DNA from: Eledone cirrhosa
Lineage: Eukaryota
DNA length: 64,000 nt
Direction: 5' to 3'
Assembly: GCA_964016885.1 (NCBI GenBank)
Contig: OZ024750.1
Location: 51,832,001-51,896,000 of the forward strand
Shown here: piece after piece, positions 9,018 to 49,840 of the stretch
How the letters are laid out: each line of letters opens with the position of its first letter
Position numbering within the stretch: the stretch's first letter is position 1
Made by a program: the position numbers and the translations under genes
The notes under the pieces: model-generated
Told to the model about the DNA's origin: nothing
What the model saw: only the letters and a program-made list of their open reading frames with translations
The model's database searches: none

Positions 9018-9458
9018 TGTACGTGTACATACTTATATTTAAGTAACAGCCGTACTAAGAGTGGGAAATGAAATTTCGTTTCATTTTCTCCGTTTATCGT
9101 TTTCGGTGCACCCGGCCGATTAACTCACTCGATATGCAAATTGGGCTACTCAGCCGTTAATATGCATAAGGTAAGTATATACGTTCAACAATCTGGCAGG
9201 AAGGTATACGTTGCTGACGATAGCTAATAAGCTTGAAACTAGTACAGCGTTCCTTTGTCAGTGTTGAACAAACGAGCAACGATGGTTGCTGGATACTACG
9301 GCTTAATACGGGGTGTTTGTTTACAAACACACCGAGCATTATAATAAATGTTCGGTGAATCGATACGTACATATATATATGTGTGCATGTATGTATATAA
9401 TATATACATACTACTGTACGTCTCTATACATATATGTATGTACGTGTACATACTTATA
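9018..9458 (+). mobile_element. ~421-bp hammerhead-containing retrozyme-like repeat, copy 1
   Basis: Reverse-complement homolog of 11790-12290, 44187-44573 and 49392-49840; 20-nt terminal redundancy TGTACGTGTACATACTTATA at 9018 and 9439. Confidence 0.75.
9208..9250 (+). ncRNA. Minimal type I hammerhead ribozyme
   Basis: ACGTTG CTGACGA t AGCT aata AGCT t GAAA CTAG TA CAGCGT: 6-bp stem I, intact core, palindromic stem III (ACTAGT), GUA cleavage triplet. Confidence 0.85.
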
Positions 9459-10269
9459 TATATATATATCCTGATATCTTTGTAACTTCTTATCCATCTC
9501 GCTATCTTTCCATTCGTCAATCAATTCTCTCTCTCTCTCTTTATTCTCTCTCTCCTCTCTCTTCCCCTTCCTCTCTACTCTCTCTTCCACTCTCTTTTAC
9601 TCCTCTCTCCTCCTACACCTCTCACTCTCTCGCCTCTCCCACACAAACACAAACACACACGCATACATTTACACACATGCACTCAAACATTCATATGTTT
9701 ATTTACACTCACTCACACACATCCACACACACTCACACACACACACACACAACTTCATCGATCTCCCCAGACTCACAAAGGTCACGGCTCCCTCCCCCCT
9801 CTCGTCCTCCCCTTCCATCTTCTAATTAATGACAAAATACACATTTGAACAAACGCACTCACACACACACACACACACACACACTCTCTCACACTCACAC
9901 ACACACACACCCTCTCACACTCACACACACACACTCACACACACACACTCTCTCTCTCTCACACACACAGACACACTCACACACACACACTTTCTCACAC
10001 ACACACACTCTCTCTCTCTCACACACACACACACACACTCTCTCACACACACTCACACACTCACTCTCTGACACACACACTCACACACACGCACTCACAC
10101 TCACACACACTCACACTCACACACACTCACACACTCACACTCACACACTCATTGTCCCTCTCTCTCTCCCTCTCCATCTCCCCTCTCCCTCTCTCTCCCT
10201 CTCACTGTCCCTCTCTCAGTCTCCCCTTCTCCCTCCCTCAAATAGTCTATCCCTCTACATGGCTAAATG

Positions 10270-10713
10270 CAAGAAATGTAAATCTGACTCTTTCAAATAT
10301 TAATAATATTCTGTTGGTCTACAACTATGTGCCAACCCGTTTAAAGCCATGGCAACACGAGAGCAACAATGGCGGGGTCATTCCACTCACATGGCGGAAA
10401 GAGGCTGAATGGCGGGGTCATTCCACTCACATGGCGGAGAGAGGCTGAATGGCGGGGTCATTCCACTCACATGGCTGAAAGAGGCTGAATGGCGGGGTCA
10501 TACCACTCACATGGCTGAAAGAGGCTGAATGGCGGGGTCATTCCACTCACATGGCTGAAAGAGGCTGAATGGCGGGGTCATTCCACTCACATGGCTGAAA
10601 GAGGCTGAATGGCGGGGTCATTCCATTCACATGGCGGAAAGAGGCTGTTTTAGAATTGGAAACGATTCGAATATTATTATTAATATTAGAAACACTCAGA
10701 TTTACATTTCTTG
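10270..10713. mobile_element. MITE-like element with ~40-bp imperfect TIRs and an internal 40-bp minisatellite (7 copies, 10367-10647)
   Basis: CAAGAAATGTAAATCTGA..AATATTAATAATATTC at 10270 is inverted at 10670-10713. Internal unit is AATGGCGGGGTCATTCCACTCACATGGCTGAAAGAGGCTG. Confidence 0.6.
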
Positions 10714-10934
10714 TATATATATATATATATATATATATATATATATATATATATATATATATATATATATATATATGTATATATATATATATATATATAT
10801 ATATATATATATATATATATATATATGTATATATATATATATATATATATATATATATATATATATATATATATATATATATATATATATATATATATAT
10901 ATATATATATATATATATATATATATATATATAT

Positions 10935-11645
10935 ATATGAAAAAGTTTGTCCTCATCAGTGGCCTTCCAACCGTCGTAGGCATTTCGTCGCATTAAAGGC
11001 CATATACCTCAGGTTGGTGCGAGCAACGGCTAAAAAAAGTCGTTGGGACACGTAAATAAAGGGGACGCTAGGGTAAACAAACAAAATGGTTTAAGCAACA
11101 GAAAGTGATGAAGAAGAAAGAAACAAGTCCCAGATTTATATGAATATAAATTCGGTGGAATCGTGAACGAGAGAATAAAGAGCATCAAACCTGGTTGAAA
11201 TGTGAGCAAGGAAGGAATTTCGCACAGGTCTAACGGGAGGAAGAAGGGGTCTGGTCGCAGACGAGAGAGAGAGAACTCTCTCTCGTCTGCGACTTCACAG
11301 AACTTATGTTTACCGAATTCGCAGACCAGACCCCTTCTTCCTCCCGTTAGACCTGTGCGAAATTCCTTCCTTGCTCACATTTCAACCAGGTTTGATGGTC
11401 TTTATTCTCTCGTTCACGATTCCACCGAATTTATATTCATATAAATCTGGGACTTGTTTCTTTCTTCTTCATCACTTTCTGTTGCTTAAACCATTTTGTT
11501 TGTTTACCCTAGCGTCCCCTTTATTTACGTGTCCCAACGACTTTTTTTAGCCGTTGCTCGCACCAACCTGAGGTATATGGCCTTTAATGCGACGAAATGC
11601 CTACGACGGTTGGAAGGCCACTGATGAGGACAAACTTTTTCATAT
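10935..11645. repeat. Long near-perfect inverted repeat (~320-bp arms) between (TA)n tracts
   Basis: 10935-11256 is the reverse complement of 11324-11645, and the ORF track shows the same peptide tail on both strands. The spacer holds a second hairpin at 11254-11293. Confidence 0.95.
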
Positions 11646-11789
11646 GTAACCCATTTGCAGCGCCGCAGCTCTATTATTATCATATATATATATATATATA
11701 TATATATATATATATATATATATATATATATATATATATATATATATATATATATATATATATATATATATATATATATATATATATAT

Positions 11790-47000: not shown

Positions 47001-47266
47001 GAAGGACTCAGGACAACCAGAAGTTTAACCCAGACTGAACTATCACACGCGATCGTTCTTCAAAAGTTGTTCCCCCCACCTACCTAGTCTAACTGAGTTG
47101 TCCCTCTTGCTGTCAAACTACAGACATCTGACATCTGCTGCACAGAATCTAGCCAGCTCATATATACTTCCGCTCTCTCTATAACCATACACAATTTGAA
47201 ACTCTCTCTCTCTCTTTCAAGTGTATGTATATATATATATATATATATATATATATATATATATAT

Positions 47267-48269
47267 AATAAATTAGACAATAATCAAAGTTGTGTTCAAA
47301 TCATTTAATAGCTGACAATCGTTTCTTCCAAACTTTTGTTTGGAGTCATCGGAGCATTATCAATGTTTGTACATATAATTAACCTTCTATTCAACTGAAC
47401 AATCATATAGATGCATATATATTGATATTGTGAGCAACAGTTTCGTATTTACAGGATGTACTGAATGCGACATATATTATACGAGAAGTGAACAAACATT
47501 TAAATTCAAATTAAAAGCACAGAGTGGAATACATGCAACAGATAATACAAGAAAATAGTCTAATAATTAAAGAGTCATTGAGAAAGAAGCATTGAGAGAG
47601 GAATAGTACATTAGCAATACATATGGAAGTGTGTAGAAAGTGCACATGCGTTAGTCTTATATATGAGAAGGAAATAAGCAAAGGTATTATGTATATATAG
47701 ATAAATAAATACTGTATGGTAAGCAAATATGTTAATGTATTAAAATCTTCGGCGGATGTAGTATGTTGATAGTGTTCGAATTTGTGTGTGTTGAGAAAAA
47801 CACAGTTACTGCAGTCCTTTCCATTACATATGTTGAATTATATTTTAGTTAATGTTTATATTGAATGTTTTAAGTTAGTTAAAGCAATGGATTGTATATT
47901 AGTCTTACTGTATTCTTATTCATCGATTACAGTTGTTCAACAGGTAGATTTTCCAACGGTTTAATTTCCGGAAGTGAGTATGTGATCCAAGATTAAGGGG
48001 AGCTAATGAGTAAGGGGAGGTAACTAGCTAATAAAATTCAATTATTTAAATTATTTGCTCTAATATACATTATAATGTGATACAAGTGAATCTCTATTAC
48101 ATAATGTTATATATTTATACTTAATTTTAAATAATTGTTCAGTTGAATAGGAGGTTAATTATATGTACAAACATTGATAATGCTCTGATGACTCCAAACG
48201 AAAGTTTGGAAGAAACGATTCTCAGCTATTAAATGATTTGAACACAACTTTGATAATTGTCTAATTTAT
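47267..48269. mobile_element. Fold-back element (~135-bp arms) with HHR motifs at 47311-47355 (-) and 48182-48226 (+)
   Basis: 47267-47403 is the reverse complement of 48134-48269. Consensus of the two arms: GCT CTGATGA cTCCAAAC gaaa GTTTGGAa GAAA C gatt G TC AGC. Confidence 0.8.
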
Positions 48270-48439
48270 TTTCCTGCTCTGTAAAACAACTGATGTTCTT
48301 ACATTGAGCTATTTCTCTTACTGGTAATATGGTAGTAATAAATTACTGACCTTTCCTGTTTATAGTTGTTTATAGTATATACATAACTATAAATATTATT
48401 ATTATTATATATACATATGTATATATCTATCTATCTAGG

Positions 48440-48650
48440 GCGAGTAAAATTCCCGAGATCCATTGACGAGTTCTCTCCAGCGGCTCTGTCCCTCATTATC
48501 GCTGCCATGTCCTGCGTCTCCAACAGATCAGTGTCTGGCCTCAGGACATCAACATATGTTAACTTCGGTCTTCCTCTTCCAGTGTGTCCATGCAGGGGCT
48601 CCCACAGAAGCACTGAGTGGATGTCGGTGAGCATGTCCAGCTAACCTCAG
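48440..48650 (-). mobile_element. RTE/RTE-X-type LINE 3' fragment
   Basis: VLLWEPLHGHTGRGRPKLTYVDVL..DT......AAIMRDR. Confidence 0.65.
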
Positions 48651-49391
48651 TTATATATACCGAGAGAGAGATTTCTTAAATCATCTAATAACCTTCCAAA
48701 TGTTTCAATACAATATATTTAAATAACACTAATGTTACAACAGTATAGTGCAAAAGGAGGAAATATATTAAACATAATGTATCATCAAATATTGTACTTC
48801 TTCAGAAGCAATATAAATGATAAAAACAAGTACCTGGTGAAGAGCAAGCCTGAAAGATAAAATTTGTTGTACCTTCGAAGTACTATATCTTTAATGTATA
48901 CTCTCAATCCATATATATATATATATATACAAGTTAATATAAATTAATATATATGATGAAACACAAATACCAACATATAAGTGTTTGTATTGTAAAAGAC
49001 TAAGTTAGCTAGATTGAAAAATACTAATTATAATAATACAGTTTGTCTGTCTCGATTTAAAATAATAAATCAATAAAAACAAACGATATTGGCAAATGGC
49101 CGTGGTACTTCGACAAATTTAAATTTCAAAATCAAACCTGTTCCGTAGATAAGTTTAAACTTCAAAATCCAAATAAGTTTCGAGATGAAAAAGTGAAAGA
49201 ATACCCCGTTCAGCTCTCCTCAGTAAGTACCCTGAACAATTGGTATGCTTCACTTCAAAATATTTAAAAATATTTAAATATATATATATATATATGTATA
49301 TATATATATATATATATATGTGTGTGTGTGTATATATATATATATATATATATATATATATATATATATATATATATATATATATATATAT

Positions 49392-49840
49392 AAATGGAAA
49401 AAATGAAACAAAATTTCATTTCTCACTCTTAGTACGGCTGTTACTTACATATAAGTATGTATACGTACATACATATATGTATACAGACGTACAGTAGTAT
49501 GCATATATATATACATACATGCACACATATATATATATATACGTATGGATTTACCGAACATTTATTATAATGCTCAGTTTGTTTGTAAACAAACATCCCG
49601 AATTAAGCCGTACAGTGTTTAGCAACCATCGTTGCCCCTTTGTTCAACACTGACAAAGGAACGATGTACTAGTTTCAAGCTTATTAGCTATCGTCAGCAC
49701 CGTATACCTTCCTGCCAGATGATTGAACGTCTGAAAGTATATACTTTCCTTATGCATATTAACGGCTGAGCAGCCTAATTTGCATATCGAGTGAATTAAT
49801 CGGCCGGGCGCACTGAAACCGATAAATGGAAAAAATGAAA
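49392..49840 (-). mobile_element. Retrozyme-like repeat, copy 4 (HHR at 49661-49703, minus)
   Basis: Terminal redundancy AAATGGAAAAAATGAAAC at 49392 and 49824 (period 432). Confidence 0.75.

Follow-up and report, generated by a model that had tools for sequence, protein, structure and literature searches.

Two kinds of described elements come closest to the repeat family reported here. The first are the metazoan retrozymes devoid of long terminal repeats (non-LTR retrozymes), which are described as tandem repeats whose circles are expressed (Cervera & de la Pena 2020, PMC7229834); among them, axolotl retrozymes in which helix III has 1 bp or helix II a U.U cleave well only as dimers, and form circles. 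The second are Penelope-like elements (PLEs), whose traits include partial tandems, inverted 5' neighbours, tails and targeting of (TA)n, and which also exist as non-autonomous forms with pseudo-LTRs (pLTRs) (PMC8557442). In the Anolis PLE Poseidon_Ac, the reverse transcriptase (RT) starts at two internal sites bounding an optional tail, and both target strands are extended (PMC11167929). Circular templates have already been proposed for more-than-unit PLE copies (PMC4209133). The role of the hammerhead ribozyme in PLEs and the enzyme moving animal retrozymes are treated as open questions (PMC8557442, PMC7229834, bioRxiv 10.64898/2026.07.22.740005). Here, we analyse a family of hammerhead-bearing repeats in a 64,000-nt stretch of Eledone cirrhosa DNA (assembly GCA_964016885.1, contig OZ024750.1, positions 51,832,001 to 51,896,000 of the forward strand; hereafter the window). 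We put at roughly 0.6 the probability that this family is a non-autonomous PLE-type retrozyme, whose RNA, likely circular, is copied into nicked TA microsatellites by an enzyme borrowed from a PLE.

The window contains four homologous non-coding copies (c1 to c4; Table 1), at about the positions given in an earlier note made from the sequence alone. Their non-repetitive cores match each other at BLAST E-values of at most 1e-109 and are identical at 263-280 of 287-297 aligned columns (92-97%); their flanks are mutually unrelated. With an nhmmer profile of the four copies, only these four stand above E 0.3 and no fifth close copy appears in the window. The unit has a GC content of 0.378 and, as the note had it, a period of 421 nt in c1 and c2 and of 432 nt in c4. 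Two subfamilies can be distinguished: c1 and c2 represent the 421-nt one, and c3 and c4 another with 8-nt and 2-nt insertions. Copy lengths span 0.92-1.21 units. Three of the four copies are terminally redundant, as previously proposed, but the sizes suggested then (20, 80 and ~17 bp) have to be replaced by 39 bp with two mismatches in c1 (9000-9038 / 9421-9459), 82 bp in c2 (exact; 87 bp if one indel is allowed) and 20 bp in c4. No credible open reading frame (ORF) was found in the unit, the longest ATG-initiated ORF overlapping c2 being 79 aa long and partly microsatellite. The family is also abundant, as the earlier note had claimed: 11,774 of the 17,142,217 contigs of X1, a public run sampling the whole genome (which may be the window's own source and is thus not independent of it), match the unit, which supports a high copy number. 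X1 contigs collapse repeats; their summed depth amounts to 0.9-2.7 million in most bins, a figure that does not measure copy number and was not taken to do so. A wrap-around joint (9351 to 9001) is found in the same contigs.

The ends of the copies suggest how the family moves. The 3' ends occupy two sites only, equivalent to positions 9038 (site A; c1 and c3) and 9097 (site B; c2 and c4) and 59 nt apart on the c1 map, so that each subfamily uses both sites. Two coincident pairs would be obtained by chance with P 0.0004 for uniform points, or 0.017 if only TAT-ending positions are considered. In all four copies, (TA)n directly abuts the 3' end (about 0.005 expected per random point). Sites A and B are also the best-supported TA junctions in X1: among the best six rows of contig loose ends (215 weaker rows lie beyond these), two fall at 9038 (34 contigs) and 9097 (47 contigs), both followed by TA repeats, three correspond to subfamily indels and one to an alternative arm at 9272. 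The 5' ends, in turn, lie at four different positions. Fixed 3' ends in (TA)n combined with variable 5' ends give the polarity of target-primed reverse transcription, and the use of two 3' sites matches the optional tail signature of PLEs. The earlier note had described ends at differing points of the circular map, which holds for the 5' ends but not for the 3' ends; fixed ends, which it had named as evidence against a retrozyme, are thus present on one side only and in the pattern of a PLE tail.

Two of the 5' ends deserve mention. Copy c4 is joined head-to-head to another, heterologous hammerhead-type element, the pair being bordered by TA tracts; this is the only such arrangement among the four copies. 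Both may have been produced by one two-strand insertion, nesting being the alternative. The neighbour is related to the sequence at 25779-26145, with homology that is clear from ~49925 onwards and poor alignment nearer c4. At the 5' junction of c2 (~12299-12355, minus strand), the element is preceded by (TA)n and by three to four stuttered repeats, each of 13-15 nt and taken from the end of the element itself, a structure that resembles RT slippage or repeated re-priming. Overall, the family shares with endonuclease-positive (EN+) PLEs an optional tail with two start sites, possibly an inverted 5' neighbour, (TA)n targets and a hammerhead near the 3' end (PMC8557442, PMC11167929). Similarly, partial tandems or pLTRs and variable 5' ends are known from EN+ PLEs and their non-autonomous forms (Hydra, Neptune and Naiad clades; MRC1; PMC8557442, PMC11167929). 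Unlike the EN+ PLEs described (PMC8557442), it has no ORF and its tail is of 59 nt instead of 30-40 nt. In addition, a short TAT match to the target is present at both start sites, whereas Poseidon_Ac started without homology (PMC11167929). We consider mobilisation by a PLE RT and endonuclease highly probable from these scars.

Could the copies simply be solo pLTRs, i.e. 5'-truncated copies of an ordinary ORF-bearing PLE? The PLE scars would agree with this, as would the position of the hammerhead, 215 or 274 nt from the 3' end compared with 241 nt in the Neptune-like element at 53985-55936, and most genomic PLE hammerheads are solo (PMC4209133). However, c2 and c4 each contain the tail sequence twice, and in both copies the stretch repeated at the two ends leads without a break into the remainder of the unit, which leaves no room for an ORF inside the template. 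As the unit closes on itself without an ORF, the copies are not truncated autonomous PLEs. They are also not attached to a PLE ORF, the other arrangement that the earlier note had set against its proposal: no homology to the flanks of PLE ORFs is found in the window (its Hydra-, Neptune- and Poseidon-like ones were compared with the unit), and blastx of the unit against 120 Hydra-like proteins returns no match (best E 2.2). The solo pLTR explanation is thus largely refuted for the present copies and very improbable, although an ancestral origin of the family from a pLTR is likely. The absence of an ORF and of PLE flank homology likewise supports the proposal, made in the note, of a non-autonomous hammerhead-bearing retrozyme-like family with a probable Penelope-like RT.

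Even less probable is a short interspersed nuclear element (SINE)-like or satellite repeat, moved by a long interspersed nuclear element (LINE) other than a PLE (RTE, L1-Tx1 or Dong-R4) or by duplication at the DNA level, the hammerhead being incidental. Remnants of other LINE RTs do exist in the window, and some LINEs target microsatellites. But no tRNA gene was found in the window, the unit lacks a Pol III A/B-box consensus and the copies lack poly(A), while the terminal redundancy, the two-site tail and the head-to-head junction are PLE traits; the copies also have unrelated flanks. A bacterial promoter scan, irrelevant to this DNA, gave chance-level results.

The second component of our explanation is the ribozyme. 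Each of the four copies carries a type I hammerhead motif in which every core base is kept, with the elements listed in the earlier note all present: stem II AGCU/AGCU, GAAA, ACUAGU and the GUA triplet (9242-9244 in c1). Helix I, of 6 bp, continues as a long rod (9182-9268 in c1), helix II has 4 bp with a U.U at its base, and helix III consists of one pair capped by a palindromic CUAG tetraloop. The motif resembles axolotl HHR_Amex1, a type I hammerhead with a 1-bp helix III and a palindromic loop, and HHR_Amex2, with its U.U at the base of helix II (PMC7229834). Like the minimal hammerheads of PLEs, it has a palindromic helix III, which implies activity as a dimer (Cervera & de la Pena 2014, PMC4209133). 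The "minimal" label used in the note nevertheless had to be abandoned, because in the minimal hammerheads of PMC4209133 helix II spans 7-8 bp, the G10.1-C11.1 pair is conserved and the base that follows A9 is unpaired, whereas the motif found here is canonical-sized, with its 4-bp helix II opened by the U.U and its 6-bp helix I. No Rfam model matched the window at gathering score, and no hammerhead model was among the 35 weak matches obtained for c1, almost all of which lie in the AT-rich block.

Energy predictions suggest that this hammerhead works only as a dimer: the monomer catalytic fold is predicted at +0.4 kcal/mol and the double hammerhead at -16.0 kcal/mol, although a different cofold is predicted to be lower still (-20.7 kcal/mol). 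Variation in X1 is confined to five places of the 41-nt hammerhead: two are the partners of one helix I pair, and the other three are N7, loop II and the cut-site base. In c4, that helix I pair differs on both sides. The cut-site base changes from A to U, which is tolerated under established hammerhead rules. Each of the two parts of this pattern has a P of 0.017, computed post hoc, and the pattern suggests selection, possibly for catalysis. Variants placed on the c1 fold break 9 pairs versus 12.6 expected, which is not significant (P 0.08). As in metazoan non-LTR retrozymes, which have short, non-coding, low-GC units and co-occur with PLEs (PMC7229834), the predicted circle is highly self-paired (z = -6.2 to -6.9 for the circular unit, 30 shuffles).

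Upstream of the ribozyme of c1, we noted an octamer motif (9134-9141, plus strand; altered in c2) and a splice-donor-like motif (9170-9176, plus strand; lost in c3 and c4). Contigs of X1 and of a second run, X4, contain a sister subfamily in which tail block (9026-9081) and ribozyme rod (9181-9272) are retained, with replaced sequence between and after them (c1 places 9081-9181 and 9272), hinting that block and rod could be functional modules.

How these observations may fit together can be described in four steps. Transcripts would come from rare source loci, arranged in tandem and bearing two or more hammerheads. Two hammerheads are then predicted to pair via the palindromic ACUAGU and to cut after GUA, and the monomer would be ligated into a compact circle of 421 or 432 nt. 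Next, as the insertion scars suggest, a PLE GIY-YIG endonuclease would nick (TA)n, and the RT would start at internal site A or B with the help of a few-base UAU match between RNA and target. Finally, copying would pass the ribozyme cut site and halt after 0.9-1.2 units; the DNA scar itself, with the cut site intact, is observed in the copies. What is left are insertions that carry one hammerhead, a short terminal redundancy and, optionally, the tail of 59 nt; they would be dead ends for the formation of new circles.

The shape of the template is the most delicate part of this scheme. The copies run uninterrupted through the cut site, so a cleaved linear monomer was not their template, and if the ribozyme cuts during the life cycle, re-ligation to a circle has to follow, as proposed for PLEs in PMC4209133 and in agreement with the circles demonstrated for retrozymes. 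Alternatively, the same non-autonomous PLE-type element could be copied from a linear, uncleaved, longer-than-unit transcript, whose source would be terminally redundant or in tandem and would favour one 5' boundary in each subfamily; the hammerhead would in that case be retained to act late or with the help of proteins, any circle being a by-product. This is compatible with the agreement of 5' ends within subfamilies irrespective of the 3' site, with the size of the four copies, all near one unit and none multimeric, with the predicted inactivity of the monomer ribozyme and with the use of unprocessed RNA as the main substrate by the Anolis PLE (PMC11167929). However, the pattern of ribozyme variation suggests catalytic constraint; cleavage without re-ligation would give ends at 9244/9245, which are found in none of the four copies and in none of the best six X1 loose ends; and no single 5' junction appears among the best six of the 221 X1 rows, so that 5' ends are not sharply fixed. 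We regard the linear template as rather unlikely, and a circular one as narrowly favoured, in what remains close to an even call.

Several results weigh against the circular PLE-type retrozyme that we prefer. The 5' ends group by subfamily whichever the 3' site (c1/c2 at ~9000-9009, c3/c4 at ~9073-9078), and this clustering, four points within an 80-nt arc (P 0.028, n = 4), is not what one round plus overshoot predicts; such subfamily-wise ends are compatible both with a linear template that has a favoured boundary and with a circle on which strong stops occur. None of the four copies contains two hammerheads, for which at least 672 or 731 nt would be needed, so that no source locus was seen. 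Between the four copies, covariation does not reach significance (one double change, reached in 127 of 500 shuffles), invariance of the 11 core bases is expected anyway (P 0.41), additional conservation of the rod is at the border of significance (P 0.049 for the four copies, 0.28 in X1) and the antisense strand also folds well (z -5.6). The tail exceeds the length described for PLEs, and no homology to an autonomous PLE end was found in the window, nine of its ten candidate regions scoring at shuffle level and the tenth being an ORF-less diverged sister of the family (13005-13210). Lastly, hammerhead cleavage is dispensable for Poseidon_Ac insertion in vitro (PMC11167929), and eight of nine Xenopus dimers did not cleave in vitro (bioRxiv 10.64898/2026.07.22.740005).

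Compared with the retrozymes of PMC7229834, the family reported here appears in the window as dispersed copies of 0.9-1.2 units with a single ribozyme; its unit is slightly larger than the 350-390-bp mussel repeats, and its two fixed 3' ends in (TA)n set it apart. The preprint bioRxiv 10.64898/2026.07.22.740005, which reports unit lengths of 51-972 bp, finds monomer copies to be common and deems them inactive offspring. It reaches the same view as ours, a PLE origin and mobilisation of animal non-LTR retrozymes, but from different evidence: co-occurrence and pLTR homology there, with no mollusc among the classes listed, and here an insertion scar (two-site tail, TA target), with no pLTR homologue found in the window. 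The present family would work like an animal non-LTR retrozyme, and its scars are those of a non-autonomous PLE; the preprint argues that both labels denote one thing.

We found no description of this family in the literature on hammerheads, Penelope and retrozymes, nor, by title or abstract, in that on octopus hammerhead ribozymes; Repbase, Dfam and some supplements, which lay outside the search, may contain it. Ribozymes are not mentioned in the parts covered of the 2026 Octopus vulgaris repeat annotation (PMC13282606), and in the Craig et al. 2021 supplement (PMC8557442) the ribozyme 3' motif matched only once, in a coding sequence. Exact patterns of the family matched no stretch in metagenome contigs and none in viral contigs. 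Apparent shares of the family in 16 organisms gave no support for its presence in other species where checked. In one of them (organism E), raw reads numbered 6 and 3 in 1.9 Gb each, all on the AT-rich positions 9000-9044, though its other run X8 had 0.39 of the words. In X4, only seven contigs match, two long ones at depth 3.6-5.6, and two runs of the same sample gave 0.00. Trace carry-over from a very high-copy repeat would explain such signals.

Table 1. Copies of the family, their hammerhead motifs and related features of the window.
Feature	Position	Strand	Remarks
Copy c1	9000..9459	+	421-nt subfamily, 1.09 units; 3' end at site A, then short (TA)n
Copy c2	11788..~12298	-	421-nt subfamily, 1.21 units; 3' end at site B, then >100-nt (TA)n
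Copy c3	44187..44574	-	432-type subfamily, 0.92 unit; 3' end at site A; (TA)n flanking both ends
Copy c4	49390..49841	-	Period 432, 1.05 units; 3' end at site B, then (TA)n
Type I hammerhead motif of c1	9209..9249	+	Core 9214-9220 and 9235-9238; predicted cut after 9244
Hammerhead motif of c2	12057..12097	-	Loop II AACA
Hammerhead motif of c3	44390..44430	-	
Hammerhead motif of c4	49662..49702	-	Helix I pair U.G to G.U, both sides changed
Optional 59-nt tail between sites A and B	9039..9097	+	Strong predicted hairpin; here in 5' part of c1
PLE-end-like short element unrelated to the family	49842..50090	+	Hammerhead motif with broken core GAAA; head-to-head with c4; ends in (TA)n
Diverged sister element	13005..13210	-	Own type I hammerhead, CUGA at 13143; cut by SINE-like repeat 12806-13002, then AT-rich, (TA)n
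Hydra-like PLE ORF	17581-19425	-	DKT and CxCx5C motifs; 5'-truncated
Hydra-like PLE ORF	50238-~52150	+	DKT and CxCx5C motifs
Neptune-like PLE ORF	54713-55936		Within Neptune-like element 53985-55936
GIY-YIG fragment	60098-60754		

The diverged sister aligns with the family downstream of the ribozyme with a score of 36, versus 17.9+/-3.0 for shuffles, none of 500 reaching it. In its hammerhead, helix III is stronger (3 bp) and the cut triplet is GUC; this ribozyme may be active as a monomer. The candidate PLE enzymes of the window are all decayed or partial copies, and their clade labels come from motifs (DKT and CxCx5C as defined in PMC8557442), not from a tree. The two Hydra-like ORFs have no Pfam match; of 8,000 candidates scored, 1,152 are related to them at E<=1e-20, compared with 23 Hydra proteins in Craig et al. 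2021, so that the Hydra clade looks far larger than described. One of them (17581-19425) is joined to an inverted hammerhead element (19414-19650, plus strand). Other inverted arrangements of PLE type include a self-inverted hammerhead end at 25779-26145 and a Neptune-like pair (53991-55102 with 58010-59158). At least four further type I hammerhead families are present, at 13926(-), 19590(+), 26039(+), 26423(-), 49970(+, core broken), 53654(+), 54225(-) and ~58920(+); most reach a TA or TG tract within ~70-310 nt, and several do not have the G-C pair usually found at the base of helix II.

Three other features were noted. A tandem array of ~6.7 kb (36969-43673, plus strand) with a 90-bp period is almost stop-free in one frame (717 + 1516 codons). 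A 44-codon stretch (13594-13725, minus strand) has no Pfam match at E 0.1; it appears to resemble the motif C region of superfamily 3 helicases and may be an endogenous viral fragment. A SINE-like repeat of ~190 bp is present in seven copies that are 85-95% alike (417-590, 12806-13002, 22966-23161, 23735-23941, 36406-36601, 53770-53964 and 57185-57381); it may resemble octopod SINEs, and a literature search for its motif returned no match.

As this kind of element is already known, the gain is mechanistic rather than categorical. The coexistence of a retrozyme-type ribozyme and a PLE tail scar in one family is more direct evidence for PLE mobilisation than co-occurrence, and its high copy number makes the choice between circular and linear templates a simple genome-wide computation. 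We tentatively suggest that thousands of insertions may record a Penelope RT starting at two fixed sites, going once round a hammerhead-made circle through the ligated junction and stalling soon after. If so, the joint genome-wide distribution of 3' starts and 5' stops would directly test the origin of PLE pLTRs from circular intermediates, a proposal of long standing, and would tell what PLE hammerheads are for. For the host itself, the family may be a large unannotated repeat and a source of small RNAs.

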